This document shows positions 1 through 13,381 of a DNA stretch of 13,381 nt, piece after piece. Where the stretch lies: contig JAPDJF010000046.1 of assembly GCA_029259185.1 (NCBI GenBank), forward strand, positions 1-13,381, in the 5' to 3' direction. A program made the translations under genes and the position numbers. Below the pieces are notes generated by a model, which ran no database searches, was not told the origin of the DNA, and saw only the letters and a list, made by a program, of their open reading frames with translations. Numbering within the stretch: the first letter of the stretch is position 1; the number at the start of each line of letters is the position of its first letter. Source of the stretch: Hadesarchaea archaeon (lineage in GTDB: Archaea > Hadarchaeota > Hadarchaeia > Hadarchaeales > WYZ-LMO6).

Positions 1-50
1 AGGCGATCTTCCCGCAGTTCATATACACACTTTTGGTGACATTTCTTTGT

Positions 51-159
51 CGGGGACGCCTCTGGGACAGAGGTCTCCGTAAAGGGTCCCGTGCTGGAGT
101 TCCCCAAGCCGTGAAGGCACGGTCGGAGGAGCTCCTTCCGTGAGGGAGGAGTAGCTCAC
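51..159 (+). mobile_element. Orphan IS200/IS605 right-end / TnpB omega-RNA-like structured element (copy A)
   Basis: Terminal hairpin CTCCTTCC-GTGA-GGGAGGAG (132-151, GNRA loop, one G-U) followed by TAGCTCAC, matching the recalled IS605-family right-end pattern GGAAGC-[hairpin]-GTAGTTCAC. Further hairpins at 51-79 and 108-123. Shares collinear anchors with 10541-10649 and 4364-4482. No transposase ORF is adjacent. Confidence 0.6.
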
Positions 160-201
160 TCCACAGGTGTTCGGGAGCGAGGCGCGACGGTCTGGCGGAG
201 T

Positions 202-765
202 TCACCCGTCTGACTCTCCAAAGACTTCTCTCGCGGCTTCTTCGTAAGTTTTCAAATCGTTTTCGCTGAATAGAACGAAGACGACTTCTTTTAGTCCTCC
301 CTCTTTCTTCACGAACTCCTTCACCGTCTGCAAGGCGATGCGGCTGGCTTTATCCACAGGGTATCCGTACGCTCCCGTGCTTATGGACGGAAATGATACG
401 GTTTTGAGGCCCTTCTTGACTGCGAGCTTCAGGGAGTTGCGATAAGCCTCTGCGAGCAGCTGGGGTTCTCGCTTGTTGCCCCCTCTCCATATGGGTCCGA
501 CCGTGTGGATCACGTACTTGGCCTTCAAGTTTCCCCCCGTGGTGATGACGGCTTCACCCGTTGGGAGCCCTCCAGGCCATTCGAGCTCTCTTATTCGCTT
601 GCACTCCTCCAAGATCTTCGGCCCACCCTTTCGATGTATTGCCCCGTCTACCCCTCCTCCACCCATGAGGCTTGGGTTAGCGGCGTTGACTATGGCATCC
701 GTCTCCTGCTCTGTGATGTCACCTCTTACGAGTCTGATCAAAGTTTTTCCAACCCTTACCTCCAT
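202..765 (-). CDS. Macrodomain protein (O-acetyl-ADP-ribose deacetylase / ADP-ribosylhydrolase, MacroD/YmdB type)
   Basis: Motifs GDIT, DAIVNAAN, GGGGVDGAIH, VIHTVGP and FPSISTGAYGYP are hallmark macrodomain signatures; 187 aa. Confidence 0.95.
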   Translation of the reverse strand: MEVRVGKTLIRLVRGDITEQETDAIVNAANPSLMGGGGVDGAIHRKGGPKILEECKRIRELEWPGGLPTGEAVITTGGNLKAKYVIHTVGPIWRGGNKREPQLLAEAYRNSLKLAVKKGLKTVSFPSISTGAYGYPVDKASRIALQTVKEFVKKEGGLKEVVFVLFSENDLKTYEEAAREVFGESDG

Positions 766-820
766 CTCATTGAGTAGGGAATCTACTCATAAAATGCTTA
801 CTCGTTCGGGCTCATCAACT

Positions 821-833
821 AACTTTTAAAGTT
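821..833 (+). promoter_or_regulatory. TATA-like box within a palindrome upstream of hppA
   Basis: AACTTT-T-AAAGTT inverted repeat containing TTTTAAA (824-830), about 28 nt before the ATG at 859. Confidence 0.4.
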
Positions 834-858
834 GAAAATTCAAAACTCCTAGACGAAC

Positions 859-2850
859 ATGCAGCACGAATTGCTAGCCTGCATGTCGATGGCGATTGCC
901 GGGATGGTCTTCGCACTGGGCCTCATCATTTGGATCCTAAGAAAGCCTGCCGGTACCCCCCTCATGAAGGAACTCTCGGACACGATATATCAAGGTGCCA
1001 TGACTTTTTTGAACAGTGAGTATCGGATAATCTCCGTATACGCGCTCATTATGGCCCTCATCCTGTGGGCGTTCAAGGGATTCGAAACGAGCGTATGTTT
1101 CGTGGTGGGTGCCCTTCTCTCAGCCTTAGCCGGGAACGTTGGGATGAGGGTGGCGACGAAATCGAACGCCCGAACTGCGGAAGCGGCTAGGAGGGGGATA
1201 GGCAGAGGCCTTAAGCTCGCATTCTCGAGTGGCACAGTTATGGGGATGTGTGTCGTCGGGTTTGGTCTTTTCGGAATAAGTTTGATGTACCACCTCGTGG
1301 GTGATCCGAAGATGTTGGTGGGCTTCGGGTTCGGAGCTAGTTCCATAGCTCTCTTCGCCAGAGTGGGTGGCGGAATCTTCACGAAGTCTGCCGATATGGG
1401 TGCAGACCTTGTGGGAAAGGTTGAGGCTAGGATACCGGAGGACGATCCCCGTAATCCGGCCGTGATAGCGGACAACGTGGGGGACAACGTGGGTGATGTG
1501 GCGGGAATGGGTGCGGATCTGTTCGAATCTTACGTTGGTTCCATCATCTCAGCCATGGTGATAGGTGTGGGGGGCGTTACCCTCGGCGGGGCCATGATAG
1601 CGGAGGAAAAGGCGGTGCTCTTTCCCCTGATGCTCGCGGGGGTTGGAATACTGAGTTCGATTCTCGCTTGGAGCTTCGTGAGGTCGACCGGGAGGGCGAG
1701 TATAGGAGCCCTTCACTCCGCCCTCAACCGCGGCGTGTTCGGGTGTACTATCTTGGTCGGAATTTTGGCTTTCTTACTTTCCTACTGGTACTTGGGAAAA
1801 GTGGAGGTGTTCTTTTCGGTGCTTTCCGGGCTGTTGGCGGGGATCGTCATCGGGCTCTCCGCTGAGTACTTTACGGAAAGCAGGTTTCCGCCAGTGCTGT
1901 CCATCGCTAAGGCCACCACCACAGGTCCTGCTACCACCATCGTTTCCGGGTTTTCAATGGGCATGCTCAGCACCGCGATTCCGGTGGTCGCGGTGGTGGT
2001 AGCAATTGGGGTTTCATGGTATTTCTCGGAACTCTATGGGATAGCCGTAGCAGCGGTTGGGATGCTCAGCACCCTGGGAACGACCCTCGCGGCTGACACA
2101 TATGGCCCCGTGGCGGACAACGCAGCCGGGATAGCGGAGATGGCACACATGAGGCCGGAAGTGAGGCGGAGGGCAGAGAAGCTGGATGCTGTGGGAAACA
2201 CCACCGCGGCGATAGGGAAAGGGTTTGCGATAGGGTCGGCAGCCCTCACAGCCCTCGCCCTCTTCACGGCTTTCACCGAGCAGGGTGAAGGAGTGACACT
2301 AGCCCTGACCGATCACGTGGTCCTCATAGGGATATTCATAGGGGCCGTGCTTCCATTCGTGTTCTGCGCTCTCACGATGAGGGCGGTGAGTTCAGGGGCT
2401 TCGTTGATAGTGATGGAGGTGAGGAAGCAGTTCAAGAGTATCAAGGGCTTGATGGAGGGGAAGGCCAAACCAGATTACAACAAGTGTATTCGAATAAGCA
2501 CGAACGCGGCCCTGAAGAACATGGCTCCTCCAGCGATCATGGCCGTTGCGGCTCCGCTCGTGGTGGGGTTATCACTCGGTCCCGAGTGTGTTGGTGGCCT
2601 GCTCGCGGGGGCCATCGTCACGGGATTCTTGCTTGCTGTTACCCTCGCTAACTCGGGTGGGGCATGGGACAACGCGAAGAAATATATAGAGGAGGGAAAT
2701 CTGGGGGGGAAGGGAAGCGAGGCTCATGCAGCGGCGGTTATTGGAGACACGGTGGGCGACCCCTTTAAAGATACTTCCGGGCCTTCTTTAAACATACTGA
2801 TAAAACTCATGTCGATGGTCACACTCCTTTTCGCATCGCTCATCATCTGA
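859..2850 (+). CDS. hppA: Membrane-bound ion-translocating pyrophosphatase, K+-dependent, probably Na+-translocating
   Basis: GGGIFTKSADMGADLVGKVE, EDDPRN, DNVGDNVGD, GNTTAAIGKGF, GGAWDNAKK and GDTVGDPFKD motifs; many hydrophobic helices; 663 aa. Confidence 0.97.
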   Translation: MQHELLACMSMAIAGMVFALGLIIWILRKPAGTPLMKELSDTIYQGAMTFLNSEYRIISVYALIMALILWAFKGFETSVCFVVGALLSALAGNVGMRVATKSNARTAEAARRGIGRGLKLAFSSGTVMGMCVVGFGLFGISLMYHLVGDPKMLVGFGFGASSIALFARVGGGIFTKSADMGADLVGKVEARIPEDDPRNPAVIADNVGDNVGDVAGMGADLFESYVGSIISAMVIGVGGVTLGGAMIAEEKAVLFPLMLAGVGILSSILAWSFVRSTGRASIGALHSALNRGVFGCTILVGILAFLLSYWYLGKVEVFFSVLSGLLAGIVIGLSAEYFTESRFPPVLSIAKATTTGPATTIVSGFSMGMLSTAIPVVAVVVAIGVSWYFSELYGIAVAAVGMLSTLGTTLAADTYGPVADNAAGIAEMAHMRPEVRRRAEKLDAVGNTTAAIGKGFAIGSAALTALALFTAFTEQGEGVTLALTDHVVLIGIFIGAVLPFVFCALTMRAVSSGASLIVMEVRKQFKSIKGLMEGKAKPDYNKCIRISTNAALKNMAPPAIMAVAAPLVVGLSLGPECVGGLLAGAIVTGFLLAVTLANSGGAWDNAKKYIEEGNLGGKGSEAHAAAVIGDTVGDPFKDTSGPSLNILIKLMSMVTLLFASLII

Positions 2851-2859
2851 GTGGTGGGA

Positions 2860-3237
2860 ATGCACGTGCTTAAGATTCTCTTGAAATCGGTGGGTGAGAT
2901 AAGAGTTGGACTCTCAGGTGAAAATCCTAGAACGATCGAAGGGATATGGGCTTCCCTTCCATTCGAGTCCACGGTGAGCAAGTGGGGGGACGAGATTTAC
3001 TTCGAAATTCCTGTGGAGATGGGAGAAGAGAATAGTAAGGTCGAAGTGGAGGTGGGGGATGTCGCTTACTGGCCGGATGGGAGGGCGCTCTGTTTGTTCT
3101 TCGGGAGAACCCCTTCGAGCGTGGATGAGAAACCCAGAGCCTATGGTCCCGTGAACGTGGTCGGAAAAATCGAGGGGGATCCGACGATTTTGAGAAAGGC
3201 TAAGTCTGGAGAAAAGGTAAGAGTCGAGAAAGCCTGA
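2860..3237 (+). CDS. Cyclophilin-like fold protein (DUF369 / TM1367 family)
   Basis: WGDEIYF and GDVAYWPDGRALCLFFGRTP motifs. ATG at 2860 (in frame with the ORF from 2851) is preceded by a GGTGGG RBS-like site; probably co-transcribed with hppA. Confidence 0.85.
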   Translation: MHVLKILLKSVGEIRVGLSGENPRTIEGIWASLPFESTVSKWGDEIYFEIPVEMGEENSKVEVEVGDVAYWPDGRALCLFFGRTPSSVDEKPRAYGPVNVVGKIEGDPTILRKAKSGEKVRVEKA

Positions 3238-3240
3238 TCC

Positions 3241-3248
3241 TTTTTGTT
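3241..3248 (+). terminator. Possible archaeal oligo-T terminator
   Basis: TTTTTGTT a few nt after the stop of the cyclophilin-like gene. Confidence 0.3.
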
Positions 3249-3300
3249 CAGCCAACGTTGGATCTAGATTCTTATTTATCGGGTGGGAGAGAGTTGTGGA

Positions 3301-3672
3301 ATGGGTGGAGAGAGGCGGGGGGAAAATTTCAAGGCGAGGAGGAAGGAGCTCTTCCTGAGGTTGAGGAGGGAGGGAAAGCTCACGCCCGAGCTTGAGGAGG
3401 CGATAGTGGAGTTGTATGGATCACGGGGGAGGCATGCACTCAGGGCTATCAAAGAAGGAAAGGTGGTGAGGAGGGGTAAAAGGTGGTTCGTCAGGGGGAA
3501 GACAGAAGAATATGAGATCGTGCGCTCGCTCTGTAGTTGTAAAGATTATGTGCTTAACGTAGTTACGGGGAGAGCGAGAGTAGATATGTGCTACCACGCT
3601 TTGGCCAAAGTAGTATGTGAGCTCACGGGATGTTACTTCAAAATCGAAGATGAGAGAGGTCCGATAGGTTGA
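3301..3672 (+). CDS. SWIM zinc-finger protein (archaeal, SWS1/ZSWIM7-like)
   Basis: CSC-x16-CYH motif followed by ALA. Start chosen at ATG 3301, about 21 nt after TTATTTAT (3272-3279); the ORF track opens at GTG 3283. The stop overlaps the nth start (TTGA). Confidence 0.8.
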   Translation: MGGERRGENFKARRKELFLRLRREGKLTPELEEAIVELYGSRGRHALRAIKEGKVVRRGKRWFVRGKTEEYEIVRSLCSCKDYVLNVVTGRARVDMCYHALAKVVCELTGCYFKIEDERGPIG

Positions 3673-4304
3673 GAGACACGAGGGTGAGAGCAGTAGTGGA
3701 TATGTTGGAGAAAAGATATGGAAGGAGGATAATGGAGAAGTGGTACTCTGACCCTTTCCAAGTCCTAATCGCATGTATTCTGTCCCAGCGCACGAGGGAA
3801 GAAAACACGGATGAGGCTTCTAGATCGCTCTTCGCCGTCGCCTCCACCCCCGCGGAAATCTCCTCCCTCCCCCTTCCCAAGTTACGAAAACTCATAAAAG
3901 CAGCAGGCTTGGTGAAGCAGAAGGCGGAGAACATCAAGCGAACGGCTGAGACGATCGTGAAAGAGTACGGAGGTAAAGTTCCGACCTCTAGAGAGGCCCT
4001 GATGAGGCTCCCCGGAGTGGGACCGAAGACGGCAGATGTGGTTTTGTGTTACGGATTGAATGAGCCCACGATCCCAGTAGATACCCACGTGAACCGTGTG
4101 AGTAAGAGGTTGGGACTCGTAAGGGAGAATGCCGATCTGGAGGAGGTGAGGAAGACACTCCAACGCATTTTTTCTGTTGATCACTGGCACCTCATAAACA
4201 GGGGGCTGGTCCTCTTCGGTCGGGAGATATGTCTTCCTCGCTACCCGAGATGTGGGAAGTGTCCTCTCAGGAAGATCTGCATCACGGGAAGTAGAAGATG
4301 GTAG
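3669..4304 (+). CDS. nth: Endonuclease III (HhH-GPD DNA glycosylase/AP lyase, [4Fe-4S])
   Basis: PFQVLIACILSQRT, HhH motif LPGVGPKTA with catalytic Lys, PVDTHV with catalytic Asp, and C-x6-C-x2-C-x5-C cluster motif. Confidence 0.95.
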   Translation: MRDTRVRAVVDMLEKRYGRRIMEKWYSDPFQVLIACILSQRTREENTDEASRSLFAVASTPAEISSLPLPKLRKLIKAAGLVKQKAENIKRTAETIVKEYGGKVPTSREALMRLPGVGPKTADVVLCYGLNEPTIPVDTHVNRVSKRLGLVRENADLEEVRKTLQRIFSVDHWHLINRGLVLFGREICLPRYPRCGKCPLRKICITGSRRW

Positions 4305-4363
4305 AGGCCCTCTCTCCCGCGGTGCTTTTAGATCTCGAGCTTTGGATTAGAGATCTCGTCTTG

Positions 4364-4482
4364 GCCTCTCGGCAGGAGGTCTCCGTCATGTGTCCAGAAC
4401 GATTTCTTTGGCAATCGGGCTGGGGTTCGGGGCAGCGGTGCTCCCTCCCGTCTCTAGGGGTCTCCTAGGGGAGTAGGGCCGC
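4364..4482 (+). repeat. Degenerate copy (B) of the omega-RNA-like structured element
   Basis: 4364-4395 aligns ungapped to 58-89 at 25/32 nt, including an identical GAGGTCTCCGT. GTTCGGGGCAGC (4425-4436) matches GGTCGGAGGAGC (121-132) at 9/12. GCTCCCTCC...GGAGTAG (4440-4476) mirrors GCTCCTTCC...GGAGTAG (131-154). Anchor spacing is similar (76 vs 73 nt). The terminal TCAC is lost. Confidence 0.5.
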
Positions 4483-4501
4483 TCTGGGTAAGGGACGGGC
4501 G

Positions 4502-5086
4502 TCAGCGAATCTGAGTGAATCCCCTCCTTAGCTTCGAGAGGATGGCTCGAATTTCTGGAAAATATCTGAGTTCTGACTTAAGCTCCCTTTCCACGTCTAA
4601 CCAGAGCTCTTCTAGTCTCCGGGAGCGGTTCCCGCTTTCCCAATATTTTAGGGCTTGGACTAACATCGAGAATCGATCAGCTATATAAACTATTTTGGCC
4701 TCATCGGTCTTCTTCTCTAAATACTCCTCCCACAAGTTCGTCAATTCCCTTCCTCCAAGTATCCCCGCTAGGATGTTTTCCATAGCTTTTCTCTCAATTT
4801 TTTCCTTCACGTTCTTTTCCAGGTAATCGGTTGCAGAGCGTGGAAGGTCGCCAGTCATCGTTTCCGGCCAGTCGTGGAGTACCGCCATCGAGAGCGCTTT
4901 CCCCCTGTCTATCCTCCTCCCCCTATTTTCGAGTTCGATGCAGAGGAGGAGGGTAAGTGACGTGACCTCGAATGAGTGTTGGGCCACATCTTCCACAAGC
5001 CCCAGCGGAATGTTGCATGATATCCACCCAGTGCGGGGGGTTCTCTTCAGGTTATTCAGTCTCTGAAGGAGTTCACTCAGTTCCAT
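4502..5086 (-). CDS. HD-domain hydrolase, YfbR/HDDC2-like (putative 5'-deoxynucleotidase)
   Basis: LKRTPRTGW, EDVAQHSF, LHDWPE-x-x-TGD and a distal ADR motif; AGGAG RBS precedes the ATG. Confidence 0.88.
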   Translation of the reverse strand: MELSELLQRLNNLKRTPRTGWISCNIPLGLVEDVAQHSFEVTSLTLLLCIELENRGRRIDRGKALSMAVLHDWPETMTGDLPRSATDYLEKNVKEKIERKAMENILAGILGGRELTNLWEEYLEKKTDEAKIVYIADRFSMLVQALKYWESGNRSRRLEELWLDVERELKSELRYFPEIRAILSKLRRGFTQIR

Positions 5087-5210
5087 CTCCTAAGTTCATC
5101 CTCTTCTCCACATATAGGTTCTCAGTCTTCGTTCTCCAGACGACCCCTGCTGGAGGATTGGCTCAAAGACCAAAGGTTAAAATGTCTGAATCCTAACTTG
5201 AAACGAGAGT

Positions 5211-5465
5211 ATGGGGGAAAAGAAGCTCGTGGGGAAGATTACCCATTACTTCAATAAAATAGGAGTTGCCGTGGTAGAACTTTCGGATGAGCTCAGAGTG
5301 GGAGACAAGATCTCCATCGAAGGCCCTACCACGAATTTCCAGCAAACGGTGGAGTCAATGCAGATAGAGCATCAGAATGTTCAGTCAGCCGGGGCCGGGC
5401 AGTCGATCGGATTAAAAGTTATCCAGCGTGTCAGGGAGAAAGATCAGGTGTACAAGCTAGCCTGA
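5211..5465 (+). CDS. Small beta-barrel protein (translation elongation factor domain II-like / peptidase U32 C-terminal-like), function unknown
   Basis: 84 aa with the pattern VGKITHYFNKIGVAVVEL..LRVGD.I.IEG..F.Q.VESMQIEH..AGQSIGLKV..RVRE.D.VYK, typical of this conserved small family. Confidence 0.8.
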   Translation: MGEKKLVGKITHYFNKIGVAVVELSDELRVGDKISIEGPTTNFQQTVESMQIEHQNVQSAGAGQSIGLKVIQRVREKDQVYKLA

Positions 5466-5467
5466 GC

Positions 5468-6724
5468 TCAGGTTCCTCTTTCCCAAGATTTCAGGTATTC
5501 TCGTTGTTCGGCTGTTTGCCTTTCTAGCTTTATCCCCAAAGCCCTCAGCTTCAGTTCAGCCACTCTTCGATCTATTGTATCAGGAACTTCGTGAACCTTG
5601 GCCTCCATCCTCCTCCCGTGTTTCGCTAGGTACTCCACACCCAAGGCTTGGAGGGAAAAGCTCATATCCATGATCTCCATGGGGTGGCCGAGCGACCGCT
5701 TTCCCGCTAGGTTCACGAGCCTTCCCTCGGTCAGAAGATACAACCGTTTTCCATCCTTTAACTCAAATTCTTCCACATCCTCAAGCACCCGCTTGCGTCT
5801 CGTCGAGATCCTTGATAGAGTTTCTACGTCTATCTCCACATCGAAGTGGCCTGAATTGCAGAGAATGGCACCGTCGTGCATCAATTTCATGTGTTCCTCT
5901 CGGATTACGTGAAAGCTTCCGGTAGCCGTTATGAATATGTCTCCGTACTTGGCGGCTTCGGTCATGGTGGTGACTTTGAACCCTTCCATACTTGCCTCAA
6001 GGGCCTTTATGGGGTCGGTCTCCACCACAGTTACAATTGCCCCCATCCCCTTGGCGCGGGAGGCTATCCCTCTTCCCACGAATCCATATCCGACGACGAC
6101 AACGTTTTTTCCGGCTATCAGGGTGTTGGTCAACCCCATTAAGGCTTGGAGCGTCGATTCTGCTGTGCCGAACCGGTTGTCGAAGAACCTCTTTGCAGGT
6201 GAATCGTTCACCGCTATTACCGGAAACTTGAGTTCACCTCGGGATTCCATGATTCGAAGACGGTTAACCCCTGTGGTCGTCTCCTCACATGCCCCTATCA
6301 CCCGCTCCACGATCCTTGGTATATGATGGGCTTCCGACACTAGGTCAGCACCATCGTCTATGAGGATGTCCGGTTCCATGTTGAGCACCCTCCGCAGGTT
6401 CGTGTAGTAATCTCTTTCACTCTCCCCCCTCCAGGCATAGACACGCACCCCCTCCTTCGCTAGGGCTGCTGCGACCTCGTCACGCGTTGAGAGCGGGTTA
6501 CAGCTCGTCACGGCGACTTCAGCACCCCCCATTTTTAAGGTGAGAATGAGCACAGCGGTTTTGGCCTCGGTGTGGAGGGCAGCACCTATCCTAAGCCCCT
6601 TGAGAGGTTTGGACCTCGAAAATTCCTTCCTGATCTCTTCCAGTACCGGCATGTGTCGTTTGGCCCACTCGATCATCATCCTTCCCTTCGGTGCGAGTCT
6701 GATGTCTTTAACCCTGTATTCCAC
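5468..6724 (-). CDS. ahcY: Adenosylhomocysteinase (SAH/SIH hydrolase), archaeal short form
   Basis: HTEAKT, SCNPLST, DDGADL, EETTTG, K-x-x-FDNRFGT, GYGFVGRG, GHFDVEI, EGRLVNL and GHP motifs; GTG start; 418 aa. Confidence 0.97.
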   Translation of the reverse strand: MEYRVKDIRLAPKGRMMIEWAKRHMPVLEEIRKEFSRSKPLKGLRIGAALHTEAKTAVLILTLKMGGAEVAVTSCNPLSTRDEVAAALAKEGVRVYAWRGESERDYYTNLRRVLNMEPDILIDDGADLVSEAHHIPRIVERVIGACEETTTGVNRLRIMESRGELKFPVIAVNDSPAKRFFDNRFGTAESTLQALMGLTNTLIAGKNVVVVGYGFVGRGIASRAKGMGAIVTVVETDPIKALEASMEGFKVTTMTEAAKYGDIFITATGSFHVIREEHMKLMHDGAILCNSGHFDVEIDVETLSRISTRRKRVLEDVEEFELKDGKRLYLLTEGRLVNLAGKRSLGHPMEIMDMSFSLQALGVEYLAKHGRRMEAKVHEVPDTIDRRVAELKLRALGIKLERQTAEQREYLKSWERGT

Positions 6725-7312
6725 TCATCCACCCCTACTCATTCTCATGACCTCTTCATGAAGCTTTCTGAGACGCGTGATCGCTGGGTGGGTGCTCCCG
6801 AGTTCAGATTCGAACCTCTTCAAGATTTGGCCTATCTCGACTACCTGATTTCCCTCGATGAGCTTATCGGCATAAGTTACAATCTTTTCTTCGATCGTTC
6901 GGGGCATGAAGTCTCTCGCTGGAAGACCGAGTTTTACCGCCTCCTCCCTGGGTATCCCCGCCCCGAGGTGATTTTCTGCGAATTTCGATAATTTAGGTAA
7001 TCCCAATTTTCGAAGGATCTTGCCCCCTTCTATCCCGTGTTTTATCCCATGGGTCTTGGACCGACCTATGTCGTGCAGGATGGCACCCAGCCTCACGAGT
7101 TCGACATCGACCTCATATCCTCTTTTCTTCACGAGTTCAGCGAGTTCTACGGCCTTCTTCTCAACGGCCAAGGAGTGCCTGATGACGCTTTCTTGACATC
7201 CGGCCTCCCTTAGAAGCGAGAAGGCCTTCTCACGGGTTAACTTGAAGCCTTTCCCCCCAATTCTCTTTAAGGGATTTGATTTGGGATTCGAGACTCGAGA
7301 CCACACCCTCAT
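6725..7312 (-). CDS. HDIG-type HD-domain protein (TIGR00295-like); start uncertain
   Basis: HS..V, LHDIGRSKTHGIKHGIEG, ENHLGAGI and P.TIEEKIVTYADKL motifs. This family is commonly found next to tfe in archaea. The ORF as called overlaps tfe by 83 nt. Confidence 0.85.
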   Translation of the reverse strand: MRVWSRVSNPKSNPLKRIGGKGFKLTREKAFSLLREAGCQESVIRHSLAVEKKAVELAELVKKRGYEVDVELVRLGAILHDIGRSKTHGIKHGIEGGKILRKLGLPKLSKFAENHLGAGIPREEAVKLGLPARDFMPRTIEEKIVTYADKLIEGNQVVEIGQILKRFESELGSTHPAITRLRKLHEEVMRMSRGG

Positions 7313-7787
7313 TGTTCATGAATTCGAGTGCCTCCCCACAGTGGGGGCACTTGAACTCCAGCTCCGTGGCTTCCTCGAAAGTGATTTTTGGGCAGCCATG
7401 TTTGCAACCGAAGAACATATGATTTCGTTCGTATTCCAACCTCTCCTCCAACTTTCTAAGGAGCTCCGCTTGAATGGATTGAAAGTTTTCCATCGCGTTC
7501 TCTATCTCTACGTGCCAGTGGTAGACGTACCATCCATTGCTCTCATTCCTAGACCTCCTGTAGTTGACTATTCGATTTTCGTAAAGGTCATACAAGATTC
7601 GTCTGACTAAGTTGATCTTGAGATCGGTCAGCTTGGCTAGTTCTTCGTCTGTTAACTCCTTTCCCCAGAGATTCGAAATTACCACGATTCCTTGGTTTCC
7701 AGATATTCGCTTGATGAACTCCTTGAGCCCAGGATTTTTCTCGAATATCTCAGACTTTTTCTTGGGTTTCCTCTTTTTTTTCACCAT
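7230..7787 (-). CDS. tfe: Archaeal transcription factor E (TFIIE-alpha homologue)
   Basis: Winged-helix segment TDEELA..T.LKINLVRRILYDLYE..YRR.R...GWYVYHW, then zinc ribbon C-x3-C...FEEA..LEFKCPHCG. Confidence 0.95.
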   Translation of the reverse strand: MVKKKRKPKKKSEIFEKNPGLKEFIKRISGNQGIVVISNLWGKELTDEELAKLTDLKINLVRRILYDLYENRIVNYRRSRNESNGWYVYHWHVEIENAMENFQSIQAELLRKLEERLEYERNHMFFGCKHGCPKITFEEATELEFKCPHCGEALEFMNNEGVVSSLESQIKSLKENWGERLQVNP

Positions 7788-7810
7788 TCCTATAAACTCT
7801 GCGCTCTGAA

Positions 7811-7831
7811 CTTAAATTGATTTTTCAATTT
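7811..7831 (-). promoter_or_regulatory. Putative tfe promoter with overlapping 7-bp inverted repeat
   Basis: Minus-strand TTTAAG (7811-7816) lies about 24 nt upstream of the ATG. A perfect inverted repeat AAATTGA-TTTT-TCAATTT (7814-7831) overlaps it. Confidence 0.4.
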
Positions 7832-7911
7832 TTTCATCGGACCTTAATCTAGGGATGGGGCCGCCAAGATTTGCTCCCGCCTCGTGTTTCCCTCGAAGCA
7901 ATCGGGATCCG

Positions 7912-7936
7912 TTACCAATCTTACCAATCACCAATC
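7912..7936 (+). repeat. Tandem direct repeat TTACCAATC x2 + ACCAATC abutting the BRE of the flavoprotein promoter
   Basis: Read directly: 7912-7920, 7921-7929 and 7930-7936. Confidence 0.8.
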
Positions 7937-7950
7937 GAAAAGTTTATTTA
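7937..7950 (+). promoter_or_regulatory. BRE/TATA promoter of the Nox/CoADR-like gene
   Basis: GAAAAG followed by TTTATTTA, ending 22 nt before ATG 7973, consistent with a leaderless or short-leader transcript. Confidence 0.6.
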
Positions 7951-7972
7951 CTCTCTTTGGAATTGTGTTCAA

Positions 7973-9316
7973 ATGAAAAAAATTGATGTAGTGGTAGTGG
8001 GTGGGAGTGCAGCTGGTATTACGGCTTCTCTGACCGCTAAGATTCACTATCCTGAAAAGGAAGTCCTCTTGATAAGGAAAGAAAAAAAAGTCCTGATCCC
8101 GTGTGGAATCCCGTACATCTTCGGGACCGTTGGATCCCCCGAGAAGAACCTCATTCCTGATGCGATTTTGGAGAAGAACGGTATCCAGGTTCTGATCGAT
8201 GAGGTGAAGTCTGTGGATAGGGATAAAAAGGAGCTCTCCACCGCATCCGGGGAAAAAATAGGGTACGACCGACTCATCTTGGCGACAGGTTCTGTACCCG
8301 CGGTGCCTCCTATACCCGGGATCGATAAAGAAAATATCTTTGTGGCGAAGAAGGATGTCGATTATCTCCAACGCTTCTTGGAGACGCTCAAAGAGATCCA
8401 AGATCTCGTGATAGTGGGCGGAGGATTCATAGGGGTGGAGTTTGCGGATGAGTGTAGGAAGAATCCGAAACTGAACGTTTCGATCATAGAGATGCTTCCC
8501 CACTGCTTGATGCTGAGCGGTTTTGACGAGGACTTTTGTTCTGGAGCTGAGGGAATCCTTTCCCAAAATGGGGTAAAGGTGTTGACGAATGAGAGGGTCG
8601 AGTCGTTCACGGGGGATAAGAAGGTCACCGGAGTCAAGCTCGCCAGTGGGAAAGAGCTGAAGGCGGATGCCGTGCTCGTGGCTATTGGGGTTCGTCCAAA
8701 CATACAGCTCGCAAAGGAGGCGGGATTAGAGATGGGCGCCACGGGGGCGATCAAGGTGAACAATCATATGAGAACTTCAGATCCGAATATCTTCGCTTGC
8801 GGGGACTGCACTGAAAAGAAGTCGTTCTTCACCGGGGAGCCGGCTAGAACCCTCTTAGCCTCCGTAGCCACTTTGGAAGCCCGCGTGGCGGGTTGTAATT
8901 TGTTTAAAGCGAAGCGCGAGAACCCAGGCGTGATAGGGGTATTCTCCACGAGGATAGGGGACACCTCTTTCGCCTCAGCAGGTTTATCGGCTAGGCTGGC
9001 GAAGCAGAGCGGGTATGAAGTGGTGGTCGGGGAGGCTGTAGCCCCGGATCGGCATCCAGGGGGAATGCCCGAGATGAAGGAGACGAAGATGAGATTGACG
9101 TTCAATAAAGACACGGGGGTTCTGTTGGGTGGTCAGGTCATGGGAGGATGGGGTGTGGGTGAATTGATAAACGTGGTGGGCGCATGCATTCTTCACCGGA
9201 TGACTGCAAACGATATCGCCCAGTTTCAGATGGGCACCCATCCAGCACTAACAGCTTCTCCTATAGCTTACCAGCTCGTTAGCGCTGCCGAAAACGCGAT
9301 GAAACAAATGGGCTAG
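7973..9316 (+). CDS. FAD-dependent pyridine nucleotide-disulfide oxidoreductase (NADH oxidase / CoA-disulfide reductase family)
   Basis: N-terminal FAD fold DVVVVGGSAAG, single redox Cys in PCGIPY, LILATGS, GGGFIGVE followed by an acidic residue (IIEML, suggests NADH), IFACGD, and a C-terminal dimerisation domain. The true start is likely ATG 7973 (MKKIDVV), not TTG 7871. Confidence 0.92.
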   Translation: MKKIDVVVVGGSAAGITASLTAKIHYPEKEVLLIRKEKKVLIPCGIPYIFGTVGSPEKNLIPDAILEKNGIQVLIDEVKSVDRDKKELSTASGEKIGYDRLILATGSVPAVPPIPGIDKENIFVAKKDVDYLQRFLETLKEIQDLVIVGGGFIGVEFADECRKNPKLNVSIIEMLPHCLMLSGFDEDFCSGAEGILSQNGVKVLTNERVESFTGDKKVTGVKLASGKELKADAVLVAIGVRPNIQLAKEAGLEMGATGAIKVNNHMRTSDPNIFACGDCTEKKSFFTGEPARTLLASVATLEARVAGCNLFKAKRENPGVIGVFSTRIGDTSFASAGLSARLAKQSGYEVVVGEAVAPDRHPGGMPEMKETKMRLTFNKDTGVLLGGQVMGGWGVGELINVVGACILHRMTANDIAQFQMGTHPALTASPIAYQLVSAAENAMKQMG

Positions 9317-10476
9317 AAGTCTACTTCTTTCCCTTCGAACGCGTAAAGGAAAAGTCTTCTGTAGTCTTCTTCTCCCGGTACACGTGGATTGACGAAAGTG
9401 CACGCGGATTGGCACGATTTCGTCACCAGTTCATCCAGCCTTGCCTCGTAGTCTTCCTCGCTTATTCCCATCTCCTTTACGGATAGGGGCTCCTTGAGCT
9501 TCTTCCTCATGTCTTTGATGCATTCTATGAGTCTCTTGGTGGCCTCCTCCCCGGTTTTGGCCTTTATTCCCACTGCTTCTGCGATTTCGGCAAATCGGTT
9601 CATCACCACCTTAGAGCTGTATTCCATGACGTAGGGCAAGAACAAGCCTACCGCCCTACCGTGGGGGATATGAAATACCGCACCGAATGCATGCCCCATG
9701 GCATGGGTGGAAGCGACTTGAGAGTTGCTGAACGCCATCCCCGCCATCGTCGCGGCGATGTGCATACGCTCCCTAGCCTCTACATCCTCTCCGTTCTCAT
9801 AGGCCCTAGGGAGGTATTTGAACACTAGCTGGATGGCTTTTATCGCCATAGCATCAGAAAAATCGTTTCTCCACTGGCAAACGTATGCTTCGATGGCATG
9901 GGTGAGAGCATCCATCCCGGTGGCCGCGGTGAGCTGGGGAGGCATTTTCAATGTCAGCTTTGGATCGACCACCGATAGATCTGCCACGAGTTCCCTCGAC
10001 GAGAGTTCCATTTTGAACGATTCTTGTTTGTCGGTGATCACGGCAGCCCAAGTCGCATCGGAGCCCGTCCCACTCGTAGTGGGGATACATGCGAGTCTGG
10101 CCTTCTTCCTCAGCCCGAGTTCTGTCATCGGGGTTATGTCGTGAATCCGGAGATCGGGTCTCTCGTACAGAACCCACATCGCTTTTGCAGCGTCCATACA
10201 TGATCCTCCCCCCAAACCGACGAACCAGTCGGGGGAGAACTCCCTGGCGATCTCAACTCCTTTCATCACGTTTTCAATGGATGGTTCCGGCTCTACTTCA
10301 TCGAAGACTTTAGTCTCCATCCCCGCTTTTTTCAGGTGCTTGATGACGGTATCAACAAATCCCAGCCCGCGAATGGTTTTGTCTGTCACTACGAGGGCTC
10401 TTCTCCCCTTCATTCCCTCCAGAGATTCAAGGGCGTCTTCACCGAAAACCACTTTGGGTACGACAAACCACCACAA
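9313..10476 (-). CDS. Iron-containing alcohol dehydrogenase
   Basis: GLGGGSCMDAAK, IPTTSGTGS, GMDALTHAIEAY, HAMGH and PHG metal ligands; TTG start directly after an in-frame TAA. The stop overlaps the convergent flavoprotein stop on CTAG. Confidence 0.95.
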   Translation of the reverse strand: MWWFVVPKVVFGEDALESLEGMKGRRALVVTDKTIRGLGFVDTVIKHLKKAGMETKVFDEVEPEPSIENVMKGVEIAREFSPDWFVGLGGGSCMDAAKAMWVLYERPDLRIHDITPMTELGLRKKARLACIPTTSGTGSDATWAAVITDKQESFKMELSSRELVADLSVVDPKLTLKMPPQLTAATGMDALTHAIEAYVCQWRNDFSDAMAIKAIQLVFKYLPRAYENGEDVEARERMHIAATMAGMAFSNSQVASTHAMGHAFGAVFHIPHGRAVGLFLPYVMEYSSKVVMNRFAEIAEAVGIKAKTGEEATKRLIECIKDMRKKLKEPLSVKEMGISEEDYEARLDELVTKSCQSACTFVNPRVPGEEDYRRLFLYAFEGKEVDF

Positions 10477-10540
10477 TTATATCTAGATTCTTTGGGGGGG
10501 ATGCTAAAAAACTTTCATTTATAGGAAAGTACAGCTAACG

Positions 10541-10649
10541 GCCCGAACGAACGCCTGGAGACCAAGACCCCCGTAACCCCCCTTCCAAGGGGGATCGAGC
10601 CCTGGTCGTCGAAGAGGAAGCCCACCGCTTCAGCGGTGCGGTAGTTGAC
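10541..10649 (+). mobile_element. Orphan IS200/IS605 right-end / TnpB omega-RNA-like structured element (copy C)
   Basis: GCCCGAA..AACGCCTGGAGA ... GGTCGTCGAAGAGGAAGCC-CACCGC-TTCA-GCGGTG-CGGTAGTTGAC closely follows the recalled 3' end of tnpB elements (AACGCCTGTGGAGA ... GTCGNTGAAGCAGGAAGCCC-hairpin-GTAGTTCAC). Internal stems: GACCA/TGGTC (10560-64/10603-07) and CCCCCT/AGGGGG (10578-83/10588-93). No tnpB ORF upstream. Confidence 0.7.
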
Positions 10650-10669
10650 ATGCCTCGTTTCCAATGGTA

Positions 10670-10675
10670 TTTTTT
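10670..10675 (+). terminator. T6 tract, possible terminator for the copy C RNA
   Basis: Six T residues begin exactly 20 nt after the GTTGAC end of the element. Confidence 0.35.
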
Positions 10676-10763
10676 GACAAACCCGGAAAGACCATAAAAC
10701 TTAAAAGACAGACTTGCGAAAACCTTTAGTTAAAATCCTGATAACGGGGAGAGGTTTCGGGAG

Positions 10764-11789
10764 ATGCCGAAGAGGAAAGCAAAAAAAACTGGCATGAAAG
10801 CGGTAAAAAAAGAAAAATTGAAGTTCGCATTCTACTGGGCTGCGAGTTGTGGGGGGTGTGAGATAGCAGTCCTAGACATCGATGAAAAAATTTTAGATGT
10901 GGTTGAGGCTGCGGATATCCTCTTCTGGCCGGTGGCACTAGATTTCAAATACAAAGATGTTGAGGCGATGCCGGATGGACACATAGATGTGTGTTTTTTC
11001 AATGGAGCGATCCGAACCGAGGAGCAAGAACACATCGCCAAGCTTTTGAGGAAAAAGTCGAAGGTGATGGTAGCGTTCGGTTCTTGCGCTTGCATGGGAG
11101 GGATTCCAGGCCTAGCAAACTTAGCCGATCGGGAGGAAGTATTCCAACGGGCCTATCTGGAATCCCCCTCAACCGAGAATCCTTCGGGGGTCGTCCCCAA
11201 GACTTACGTGAAGGTCAGGGAGGGAGAACTGAGGTTACCAGAGTTTTATGACACGGTGAAGACCCTAGCCCAAACGGTGGATGTGGATTACTACTTGCCG
11301 GGTTGTCCTCCCACTCCTGAGCTGATTCTCCAAGCGGTTGAGGCCATAGTCAAGGGTGAGCTTCCGCCCAAGGGCTCCATCCTCCTCCCCCAGAGATCCG
11401 TGTGTGACGACTGCCCTAGGAATGAAACGAAACCCGAGAAGTTGAGCATCTCTGAGGTCAAAAGGCCCTATGAGGCCGACCTAGATCCGGAGAAGTGCTT
11501 TTTGGTGCAGGGAGTGATATGTTTAGGGCCGGCCACGCGCGGGGGCTGTGGAGCGAGGTGTCCGAGTGGCAACATGCCCTGTACGGGATGTCAGGGACCA
11601 TGTCCGAACGAAATCGACCAAGGAGCGGCGATGATAAGCGCTCTTTCCTCTATCTTGGGTGTGGAGCAAGAAAAGGAGGAAGGATACGACCCCGAAAGAT
11701 TGGTATCTCAAGTGGTGGATCCGGTGGGCACATTTTACATGTACAGTTTACCGGCCTCAATCCTCAGGAGGAGCGTGATGCGCAAATGA
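10764..11789 (+). CDS. mvhG: [NiFe]-hydrogenase small subunit, MvhG-like (F420-non-reducing, group 3c-like)
   Basis: YWAASCGGCE, GSCACMGG, PGCPP, CDDC, ICLGPATRGGCGARCP and PCTGCQGP Fe-S ligands. No Tat signal. GGAGAGGT RBS-like site upstream; alternative start at 10794. Confidence 0.9.
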   Translation: MPKRKAKKTGMKAVKKEKLKFAFYWAASCGGCEIAVLDIDEKILDVVEAADILFWPVALDFKYKDVEAMPDGHIDVCFFNGAIRTEEQEHIAKLLRKKSKVMVAFGSCACMGGIPGLANLADREEVFQRAYLESPSTENPSGVVPKTYVKVREGELRLPEFYDTVKTLAQTVDVDYYLPGCPPTPELILQAVEAIVKGELPPKGSILLPQRSVCDDCPRNETKPEKLSISEVKRPYEADLDPEKCFLVQGVICLGPATRGGCGARCPSGNMPCTGCQGPCPNEIDQGAAMISALSSILGVEQEKEEGYDPERLVSQVVDPVGTFYMYSLPASILRRSVMRK

Positions 11790-13246
11790 GCAAAGTAGTT
11801 ACCATAGATCCAATTACGAGACTCGAAGGACATGGGAAGATCTCGATCTTTTTGGATGAGAAGGGGAACGTGGAGAACGCGTACCTTCAGATCCCCGAAC
11901 TAAGGGGATTTGAGCGCTTCTGTGAGGGCAGGAGGGCAGAGCTGATGCCCCAGATAACCTCTAGGATATGTGGAGTATGTCCGGTTGCCCACCACATGTG
12001 TTCCACCAAAGCGCTGGATGCAGCGTTTGGCGTCGACCCTCCGAGCGCGGCGAAGAAGTTGAGGGAGCTGATGTATTGTGGTTACATGATATACGATCAC
12101 ACCCTCCACTTCTTCTACCTAGGGGGGCCGGACTTCGTCGTCGGGCCGGAGGCACCTCCGGGGGAGAGGAACATCCTTGGGGTCATCAAGAAGGCTGGTT
12201 TGGAAGTGGCAAAGGAGGTGATAAAGCATAGGGCTTACGGACAGAAGATTACAGCGATGCTCGGTGGAAAAGCCACCCACCCGGTTTCCGGGCTCCCAGG
12301 AGGGATAGCCAAATCACTCAGTGAGGACGAGCGAAAAGAAATAGAGAAAATGGCGAAGTCTAGTGTGGAGTTTTCAAAACTGGCCTTGAAGCTGTTCGAT
12401 GATATAGTACTCAAGAACGAGAAATACGTGGAGCTGATAAAGAGCGATGCGTACACGCTCAAAACCTACTACATGGGGCTCGTAGATGAAAATAATAAAT
12501 TGAACTTTTACGATGGAAAGGTTCGAGTGGTGGGGCCCGATGGAAAAGAATTCGTGAAGTTTCATGCCTCTCAGTATCTGGATGTGATAGGGGAACATGT
12601 GGAGGAGTGGACCTATGTCAAGTTCACTTATCTCAAGAAAGTCGGATGGAAGGGACTGGTGGGTGGACCGGATAGTGGTATTTACCGGGTTGGTCCGCTG
12701 GGGAGGCTGAATGCCGCTGATGGTATGGCAACACCACTCGCCCAGCAGGAGTACGAGAAGATGTATGAAATGCTTGGGGGGAGACCCGTGCACTCCACCC
12801 TAGCATTTCACTGGGCTAGGTTGATCGAGCTCTTGTACGCTTCTGAGAGGGCTGTAGAGTTGGTCCAGGACGATGAGATAACGAGCAAGGACATTCGAAA
12901 TCCTGTGGGGGCCCCAGGTGAGGGTGTGGGAGTGATTGAGGCTGCTAGGGGGACTCTCTACCACCACTACAAGCTTACTGAAGATGGAATGATCAAGAAG
13001 GCCAATCTCATAGTGGCGACCACGAACAACGCCGCTTCGATATGCATCTCCGTGAGGGAGGCGGCGAAGGCTCTGATCTCGGGGGGCAGAGTAAGCGATG
13101 GGCTACTCAACATGGTGGAGATGGCGTTCAGGGCGTACGATCCGTGCTACGCGTGCGCCACCCATTTCGCCATAGGGAAGATGCCATTGGAAGTCAAGAT
13201 ATACGATCACGAGAAGAATTTGCTCAAGACGATCACACGACCCTGA
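11786..13246 (+). CDS. mvhA: [NiFe]-hydrogenase large subunit, MvhA-like
   Basis: Start at ATG 11786 in an ATGA overlap with the small-subunit stop. IDPITRLEGHGKI, L1 motif RICGVC, EAARG-LYHHY, and L2 motif AYDPCYACATH followed by a cleavable C-terminal tail; all-Cys ligands. Confidence 0.95.
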   Translation: MSKVVTIDPITRLEGHGKISIFLDEKGNVENAYLQIPELRGFERFCEGRRAELMPQITSRICGVCPVAHHMCSTKALDAAFGVDPPSAAKKLRELMYCGYMIYDHTLHFFYLGGPDFVVGPEAPPGERNILGVIKKAGLEVAKEVIKHRAYGQKITAMLGGKATHPVSGLPGGIAKSLSEDERKEIEKMAKSSVEFSKLALKLFDDIVLKNEKYVELIKSDAYTLKTYYMGLVDENNKLNFYDGKVRVVGPDGKEFVKFHASQYLDVIGEHVEEWTYVKFTYLKKVGWKGLVGGPDSGIYRVGPLGRLNAADGMATPLAQQEYEKMYEMLGGRPVHSTLAFHWARLIELLYASERAVELVQDDEITSKDIRNPVGAPGEGVGVIEAARGTLYHHYKLTEDGMIKKANLIVATTNNAASICISVREAAKALISGGRVSDGLLNMVEMAFRAYDPCYACATHFAIGKMPLEVKIYDHEKNLLKTITRP

Positions 13247-13314
13247 CCTCATAATGAGTTGAGGACAACCCTTAGTTTTGAATCCTCGAGGTATTGAGAT
13301 TGGGGGGTTTATCG

Positions 13315-13381
13315 GTGGAGCAGGAAGAAGAGCTTGAGAAATGGTTTTCGGGGGCGAGGAAGGTGGTGGTCATGGGGGTGG
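13315..13381 (+). CDS. Hydrogenase maturation endopeptidase (HycI/HyaD family), 5' fragment
   Basis: GTG at 13315 after a GGGGGGT RBS-like run gives MEQEELEKWFSGARKVVVMGV(G), the typical N-terminus leading into the GxGN motif. Lies directly downstream of mvhA; truncated by the window end. Confidence 0.75.
   Translation, partial: MEQEEELEKWFSGARKVVVMGV

Follow-up and report, generated by a model that had tools for sequence, protein, structure and literature searches.

Elements A and C of a hadesarchaeal contig as probable relics of two protein-less IS200/IS605-derived families

The locus described here raises the question of what three protein-less, omega-RNA-like elements, designated A, B and C, represent in a stretch of archaeal DNA that otherwise carries housekeeping genes. 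The stretch, called the window below, comprises 13,381 nucleotides of a Hadesarchaea archaeon (GenBank assembly GCA_029259185.1, contig JAPDJF010000046.1, positions 1 to 13,381, forward strand) and is contig C27 of a 1.27-Mb genome in 54 contigs; the host is an archaeon since a TFIIE-alpha gene is present. The open reading frames (ORFs) of the window encode a macro-domain protein, an H+-pyrophosphatase, endonuclease III, HD hydrolases, S-adenosylhomocysteine hydrolase, an iron-containing alcohol dehydrogenase (Fe-ADH) and a NiFe hydrogenase. An earlier note on this DNA had placed the three elements in the three largest non-coding gaps, and the gaps are found where it put them (1-201, 4305-4501 and 10477-10763). 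Its statement that no tnpA or tnpB lies nearby also agrees with our search, which found neither domain among the window ORFs.

We conclude, with a probability of about 85%, that A and C are relics of two families of palindrome-associated transposable elements (PATEs), that is, of protein-less, internally deleted derivatives of IS200/IS605 insertion sequences (IS) with an IS1341-type tnpB. PATEs were defined in Haloquadratum as protein-less IS605-type derivatives with near-terminal palindromes and a conserved terminal oligonucleotide, some of which keep part of the tnpB C-terminal coding region (PMC3119063).

Families A and C and the tnpB right end

The features of copy A are:

11..159, plus strand, copy A, a left-end-less copy of PATE family A (full element ~195 nt)
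18..28, plus strand, TATA-like A/T-rich box TTCATATACAC, ~25-30 nt upstream of the conserved scaffold start
131..152, plus strand, right-end subterminal hairpin GCUCCUUCC-GUGA-GGGAGGAGU, with G-U pairs and a GNRA loop (RNAfold and consensus fold)
149..159, plus strand, right-end terminus GAGTAGCTCAC, a variant of GGTAGTTCAC; transposon boundary after base 159
160..179, plus strand, 3' flank, the would-be guide if an omega-RNA is made; native spacer of the macro-domain gene and ksgA

The features of copy C are:

10519..10649, plus strand, copy C, a left-end-less copy of PATE family C (full element ~190-200 nt)
10538..10649, plus strand, scaffold, homologous to the last ~115 nt of the tnpB on contig C34 (omega-RNA region)
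10621..10641, plus strand, right-end hairpin CCCACCGC-UUCA-GCGGUG(C)GG, with an 8-bp stem and a UUCA tetraloop (RNAfold)
10640..10649, plus strand, right-end terminus GGTAGTTGAC
10650..10669, plus strand, 3' flank, the would-be guide; upstream of the NiFe-hydrogenase small-subunit gene

BLAST searches of the own genome placed A in a family of 10 loci with 93-100% identity, to which one diverged copy on contig C16 can be added, and C in a family of 11 copies with 82-97% identity; a longer variant of the latter, termed C', occurs in 6 copies. Covariance model R1 recognized window positions 43-159 with 134 bits (E 2e-29). Both copies are longer than had been described: the homology of A begins at position 11 instead of 51, and that of C, as compared with a variant on contig C21, at 10519 instead of 10541. 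At the other side, alignment of the family-A copies showed that homology stops at 159.

The left ends of the two families are absent from the window copies. In family A the left end, TTTAAC|CGATGCGGGCGGGAAG..., is carried by nine other copies, all of which keep TTAAC at the left boundary, and in family C a left end of ~75 nt, unlike that of A, is found in nine copies, the target motif at its boundary being TTTAGAAC. An intact A element consists, in this order, of TTTAAC, a two-tier left-end hairpin, the TATA-like box (in the long form), the scaffold, the right-end hairpin and GGTAGTTCAC. Its left- and right-end hairpins are alike (CCCCTTCC-GAAA-GGGAGGGG versus CTCCTTCC-GTGA-GGGAGGGG). Because the left end is lost, the window copies A and C are probably immobile, and their sequence makes immobile leftovers the most likely description. 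The diverged A-like relic on C16 (36055-36165, minus strand; 70% identity) has TTTAAC abutting a shortened scaffold and ends in a hairpin with a GAAA loop; it sits downstream of a gene for a small helix-turn-helix protein.

As in PATEs, the elements, which measure 130-200 nt, contain no protein gene. Palindromes are present at both ends in nine A and nine C copies, the window copies keeping the right end only. The copies lie between unrelated flanks, with the target motif on the left side only and no direct repeat seen in the flanks, and their right-end terminus is common to tnpB-bearing elements. This last property connects both families to IS200/IS605, because tnpB genes at other places in the genome end in the same way. 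When the genome was scanned for the terminal decamer, ~50 hairpin-preceded instances were obtained, distributed over families A, C, C', D and E; D and E represent tnpB 3' ends. On contigs C34, C19, C2 and C29 tnpB ORFs are closed by the hairpin and GGTAGTT(C/G)AC, a combination also present at many contig ends. The ORF on C34 encodes 373 aa. It has an OrfB_IS605 (Pfam 2e-28) and an HTH_OrfB_IS605 domain, and the ISDra2 TnpB structures 8bf8, 8exa and 8h1j match it with an E value of 3.5e-38. The ORF spans the whole scaffold, its stop codon being the TAG inside GGTAGTTCAC, 5 nt before the transposon end.

The cores of C and C' (GGGCTGGGACGGCCCGAACGAACGCCTG... to ...GAAGCAGGAAGC-hairpin) align with the coding tail of the C34 gene, and the core ACGGCCCGAACGAACGCCTG and 3' module of C are common to the tnpB 3' ends of family E. 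Origin from a tnpB 3' end, as known for omega-RNAs, is indicated by homology for C and C' and less strongly for A. In the frame of the TAG codon A reads ...GEAPSVREG* and the C34 gene ...KQEAPCESWG*; the scaffold frames of the elements are interrupted by stops and indels. Copy number and the right end shared with tnpB bear out, for A and C, the earlier proposal of a high-copy non-autonomous IS200/IS605 mini-element with an omega-RNA scaffold. With ~50 right ends in 1.27 Mb, which is 1 per ~25 kb or an expected ~0.5 per 13.4-kb window, and with many tnpB genes or fragments in the genome, the occurrence of two such copies in 13 kb without tnpA or tnpB is unremarkable and not unusual as had been thought.

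Domain searches of the genome gave 26 matches to PF07282 (TnpB zinc ribbon), 19 of them above the Pfam cut-off, 11 matches to OrfB_IS605 and 4 to Y1_Tnp, of which 2 exceeded the cut-off (one with an internal stop, one partial). In the multi-copy E-type TnpB (L021:2-1120 on C34; C19:21559-22125) the CxxC...CxxC segment is gone and TSQN stands directly before IPEGFDRD; the segment is kept in two other TnpBs of the genome, and the E-type protein retains the RuvC-like D/E/D contexts.

A and C had been described as diverged copies of a single family on account of a series of ordered anchors. Five anchors do occur at the places given for them, in A (ACGCCT at 56, CCGTAA at 77, GGTCG at 121, GAGGA at 126 and GTAGCTCAC at 151) and in the same order in C (10551, 10571, 10604, 10614 and 10641). 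On both strands of the 13.4-kb window the only 109-nt segments holding all five in order are those overlapping A or C (17 start positions), and none of 20000 shuffles of C reproduced the order, a control that is partly circular as the anchors were read post hoc from A and C. The anchors thus stand but the single family does not, since BLAST and flank alignments separate the copies into two repeat families.

Insertion sites and 3' flanks

Element A is located between the macro-domain gene and ksgA and is antisense to both. The start of ksgA is the feature that it affects most directly:

1..22, minus strand, 5' end of ksgA (rRNA dimethyltransferase), continuing on contig C5 (L039:622-1512); the ATG is the complement of 20-22

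In the sister genus the distance from the macro-domain gene to ksgA is 1-27 nt in all four genomes with contiguous data, and here it is ~200 nt. Because this junction is empty in 4/4 relatives examined, A is regarded as an insertion, in line with the empty sites expected of PATEs. The ATG of ksgA and its first four codons (MNCG) lie inside element A. KsgA proteins of the relatives begin with MELRERL... or MDLRERL..., and alignment is obtained only from residue 8-9 on. It seems that the insertion of A replaced the native ksgA start; A now supplies the start codon.

The end of contig C5 (C5:54622-54748) repeats window positions 1-127 without a difference, from which it follows that C5 and C27 abut, with a 127-nt overlap inside the repeat; the ksgA reading frame crosses the joint. 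D- and E-type elements recur 127 nt from many contig edges, a position that is the signature of collapsed near-identical IS copies. At eight contig ends a D-type right end lies ~127 nt from the edge, which points to these IS families as the cause of the assembly breaks. Among near-identical strains no empty site was found in the contigs of runs X4-X7 that fall on the window (no joints), and in these contigs A and C coincide with contig breaks.

Synteny breaks at copy C, where Fe-ADH adjoins the NiFe-hydrogenase operon; in all five relatives the two are on different contigs, so this site is uninformative with respect to empty sites. A TATA-like TTTATAGG (10518-10525) is part of the C21-type variant. 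On the other strand it reads CCTATAAA, ~40 nt upstream of the Fe-ADH start, and judging from the sequence it could serve as the Fe-ADH promoter.

The 3' flanks, which in an omega-RNA would be the guides, are unrelated among the copies of both families, as had been noted before for the window copies. For A as well as for C, the full 20-mer and the exact first 12 nt of the flank match only their own locus in the genome. None of the near matches of the A flank (up to 4 mismatches) is preceded by a TTTAA-like motif, nor are those of the C flank, one on C3 (up to 4 mismatches) and one on C2 (up to 2). An exact 20-mer match to either flank was not found in viral contigs. One candidate guide target, C10:14275 (18/19), was judged a chance match: it is in a coding region, has no TTTAA-like motif or other motif resembling a target-adjacent motif, and gave a BLAST E value of 0.21. 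Guides that have no second target are what transposon biology predicts, because the guide is the neighbouring DNA. With flanks that match only themselves in the genome and have no viral match, the earlier suggestion of a dispersed set of trans-acting guide RNAs for a TnpB or dead TnpB is unsupported.

A related explanation is that the left-end-less copies are domesticated, fixed-guide RNA genes with which TnpB, or a nuclease-impaired TnpB comparable to TldR, would bind or regulate host DNA near ksgA and the macro-domain gene and near Fe-ADH and the hydrogenase. Such a role would suit copies that are immobilized yet keep the full scaffold and right end, that have a TATA-like box upstream and, in the case of C, point at the hydrogenase operon from its upstream region; a multi-copy E-type TnpB without a zinc ribbon is at hand, and the domestication of TnpB as TldR is documented. 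We nevertheless consider this hardly credible. The guides are the copies' own flanks, with no second target in the genome or in viral contigs, there is no tnpB-like gene in the window, and in each family about 9 of the 11 copies look mobile and occupy unrelated sites, as ordinary elements do. Moreover, the A site is empty in 4/4 relatives, so its placement is not conserved.

RNA scaffold or DNA scar

According to RNAfold all families end in a stable hairpin, the arms of which differ in sequence but pair in every case:

Family A, arms CUCCUUCC/GGGAGGGG
Family C, arms CCCACCGC/GCGGUG(C)GG
Families C' and E, arms CCCCCUGC/GCUGGGGG
Family D, arms CCCCUUCC/GGGAGGGG

The loops of these hairpins are GUGA, GCAA, GUAA, GAAA, UUCA, UUUA or GAGA across the families, and GUGA, GCAA, GUAA or GAAA among the relatives within family A. 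Both 3' hairpins were confirmed, so the terminal stems of A and C indeed differ and still pair, as the earlier note had it. The GNRA loop and strand-specific G-U pairs reported for A were likewise recovered: RNAfold and the consensus fold both gave the GUGA loop, and several conserved G-U pairs render the family-A fold strand-specific. Over 32 distinct family-A sequences 97.5% of the cells pair, and compensatory change was detected in 2/34 pairs (13 cells; 1/500 shuffles as high). Visual comparison of the structures of A and of C, C' and E, aided by RNAalifold runs on each family, showed internal hairpins of differing number and length.

In the tnpB coding tails the hairpin loop is UUCG at C15:128, C19:21551 and C44:3882 and GCAA at C18:6263, C24:20141 and C34:1128. 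The two loop versions differ at four bases and, in the protein, by a Ser/Gln exchange. Such a tetraloop swap suggests that the RNA fold is under selection over the peptide.

The TATA-like box is present in the seven long-form A copies of the own genome and, as TATATA, in every outside A copy with sufficient upstream sequence (other genomes and metagenomes). From its composition and place it is a candidate archaeal promoter for an omega-like RNA. Comparison with Rfam at gathering thresholds gave 0 matches for A, B and C, and no covariance-model match was found to the Rfam models, among them HgcC, which PMC4615843 ties to the UUCA motif. An ARAGORN scan for tRNA and tmRNA found nothing in the gaps.

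An intact member carries the target motif (TTTAAC for A, TTTAGAAC for C) and a left-end double hairpin, in some variants with the TATA-like box, followed by ~115 nt from a tnpB 3' end, where the scaffold of the TnpB omega-RNA or sense overlapping transcript (sotRNA) is encoded, the right-end hairpin and GGTAGTT(C/G)AC. By analogy with characterized IS200/IS605 elements the following mechanism can be proposed. A Y1 TnpA acting in trans would move the elements as single strands, as is usual in the family. If transcribed, each element would give an omega-RNA with the 3' flank as guide, and a TnpB encoded elsewhere could be guided by it to cut the donor site again once emptied, by which the element would be restored according to the published model.

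The distribution of family A is scattered. It is absent from the 5 genomes of the host's own taxonomic family, but one genome from a different family of the order has it. Outside the own genome a pattern scan of species genomes found it at 6 loci in four species-representative metagenome-assembled genomes, labelled Hadesarchaea, Thermococci (two) and Ca. Alkanophaga, and a pattern scan of metagenomes added 27 loci. All outside copies with sufficient upstream DNA are protein-less and have the PATE left end, and a same-strand tnpB upstream of the scaffold was found in 0/33. At loci L082 and L091 a tnpB-like frame is located upstream of the A copy on the opposite strand. A few outside copies are preceded by TTCAC, the right-end motif, rather than by TTAAC.

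Since all 33 outside and all 11 inside copies are protein-less, one may speculate that family A is a free-riding guide-RNA gene, equipped with a promoter, an omega-RNA scaffold and transposon ends but no tnpB of its own. It would parasitize TnpA and TnpB of unrelated IS in trans and cross lineages, and the left-end-less A and C would persist as fixed-guide RNA genes that a zinc-ribbon-less TnpB could use on neighbouring host DNA. We regard this scenario as quite improbable.

Several observations weigh against the interpretation of A and C as PATE relics with an omega-RNA scaffold. A direct local alignment of A and C is not significant (19 versus 18.3 +/- 3.2 for shuffles, 174/500 as high), and A-type models (covariance model, nhmmer) do not detect C, the covariance model being a narrow one (effective sequence number 0.99) that recognizes A only. 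The two families are linked through intermediates because the alignments of A with C' (32; 1/500 shuffles as high), A with D (38; 0/500) and C with E (43 versus 19 +/- 3.2; 0/500) are significant. The descent of A from tnpB is the weaker case, as it is indicated by short peptide remnants, shared motifs and the intermediates. Neither the own genome, searched by BLAST, nor the 33 outside loci yielded a parent tnpB with an A-type tail; the outside scans used a pattern of 23 exact bases, which diverged parents would escape. No intact tnpA is visible in the genome, the genes found having an internal stop, being partial or lying at a contig end, and the E-type TnpB, which matches the C-type scaffold, is without a zinc ribbon. 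Insertion polymorphism was not seen in the contigs of the four other runs. At E values up to 5, Rfam returned a single match, to an unrelated microRNA elsewhere in the window. Covariation is thin, with 2/34 pairs supported and one pair broken in 8/32 sequences. The conservation of the hairpins could serve binding of TnpA to single-stranded DNA and not an RNA, and the expression and guide-RNA role of A and C are inferred from the DNA.

Part of this evidence also fits an alternative in which the elements are inert DNA scars: the tnpB tail and hairpins would be relevant solely as cis-acting sites that TnpA uses on single-stranded DNA, and RNA would not be made or would have no partner. The fold alone is no proof of RNA function because the same hairpins are the recognition structures of IS200/IS605 TnpA on single-stranded DNA (PMC4615843; PMC10055086). 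The missing left end in both window copies, the weak covariation, the failure to find a cognate tnpB for the A-type scaffold in the own genome and at the 33 outside loci and the loss of the zinc ribbon from the E-type TnpB are all compatible with scars. However, three independent protein-less families (A, C and C') keep at least 110 nt of the tnpB tail, though PATEs can shrink to 52 bp (PMC3119063). The TATA-like box keeps a constant spacing to the scaffold in every A-type copy from several lineages, and the tetraloops that replace one another (GNRA, UUCG and UUCA) are of RNA type. In addition, PATE-derived RNAs are expressed in Halobacterium (PMC4615843). On balance we consider inert scars possible but unlikely, and prefer to view A and C as PATE relics that derive from elements with an omega-RNA scaffold.

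Copy B and comparison with known systems

The features of copy B are:

4364..4395, plus strand, core, 25/32 match to the first hairpin region of family A; membership unproven
4396..4482, plus strand, rest of the claimed copy; no significant similarity to any family, no anchors, no right-end terminus

B had been proposed as a third copy of the same family. The 25/32 block is real, but membership and any further extent could not be substantiated, as B has 0/5 anchors and no GGTAGTTSAC end. The family-A covariance model scored positions 4354-4481 with 3.0 bits (E 6.5, 12th of 15 window hits), which is weak evidence because this model also misses C. With nhmmer 7.5 bits (E 0.04) were obtained over 27 nt only (4364-4390), the second-best match in the window, and local alignment of B with A scored 36 versus 21.4 +/- 3.5 for shuffles (0-1 of 500 as high). 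BLAST gave no other match to B in the own genome, and no B-like sequence occurs in 64 other genomes of the order. The sequence is unchanged in contigs of other runs, being bridged in X4 and X5 and covered in X6.

In five sister-genus genomes (L042-L046) a conserved plus-strand ORF (MNALHLLLLLGSPFLGLEAV..., membrane-like) is located between endonuclease III and the HD hydrolase gene. It has >140 codons and is still open in the translated stretch; it is absent here, where the B region is in its place. We discarded the possibility that B is a decayed form of this ORF, as there is no resemblance in any frame.

It is about even odds whether B is a heavily decayed A-like fragment or a chance resemblance. 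In the latter case the 197-nt gap would be a lineage-specific spacer that remained when a gene for a small membrane protein was lost, without transposon ancestry. This would explain why none of the five anchors is present, why the covariance model ranks B only 12th of 15 (E 6.5), why the similarity is limited to 27-32 nt and why B is unique in the genome and the order; it also agrees with the >140-codon membrane ORF that relatives have at this site and with the contigs of three other runs that bridge B unchanged. A decayed fragment would account for the second-best nhmmer hit (E 0.04) and for an alignment score above 499-500 of 500 shuffles. B also has the orientation of A, its first hairpin is preserved with a U-A pair changed to U-G, and it is followed at about the right distance by a GCTCC...GGGAG-TAG arrangement.

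The ~50 right-end elements are mainly of value for genome annotation. They account for many of the wider gaps between genes, for several breaks between contigs and for the altered start of at least one gene, ksgA. They also offer a compact collection of natural omega-RNA scaffolds, types A, C, C', D and E, which have one right end in common, and family A, protein-less in several hydrothermal archaeal lineages, could be used to probe the matching of scaffold and TnpB in trans. Current understanding is unchallenged by the A and C elements. Gomes-Filho et al. reported that sotRNAs arise at tnpB 3' ends and described an 8-bp/UUCA 'RE-like tetraloop'; they also reported a PATE-derived RNA that is expressed in Halobacterium and non-coding RNAs of Pyrococcus that derive from repeats (PMC4615843). 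Meers et al. stated that PATEs often encode omega-RNAs, to be used in trans by the TnpB of other elements (PMC10055086). As omega-RNA-encoding PATEs and expressed PATE-derived RNAs are already published, A and C are an ordinary, already described kind of selfish DNA.

The closest counterparts are the HqIRS PATEs of Haloquadratum walsbyi (PMC3119063). Like the A and C families these are protein-less, multi-copy and without terminal inverted repeats, their near-terminal palindromes resemble those of IS605-type elements in the same genome, and they have a conserved terminal oligonucleotide. The differences are that the present host is hydrothermal and not a haloarchaeon, that the sequences are unrelated, that the window copies have no left end and that family A is so far found in the protein-less form only. 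The omega-RNAs and sotRNAs of IS200/IS605-IS1341 elements (PMC4615843; PMC10055086; structures 8exa and 8h1j) occupy the same place, from the last ~115 nt of tnpB to the right-end boundary, with the flank as guide. They also have a stable hairpin just before the end, and copy C has the exact 8-bp stem and UUCA of the 'RE-like tetraloop' (PMC4615843). Unlike these RNAs, A and C have no adjoining tnpB and no Rfam match, and are known here from sequence alone.

The RNAs sRK48 and sRK52 of P. abyssi and VNG_R0052 of H. salinarum, cited in PMC4615843, are likewise intergenic and repetitive, resemble IS1341-type 3' ends and contain fused parts of left and right ends. These were detected experimentally as RNAs, whereas A and C are known as DNA and are likened to them by description only. 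Finally, the guide RNAs of TldR (bioRxiv 10.1101/2023.11.30.569447) are, like the would-be guides of A and C, TnpB-type guides detached from transposition. TldR guide RNAs adjoin tldR and target a host promoter elsewhere, in contrast to A and C, which have no adjacent tnpB-like gene and no second target.

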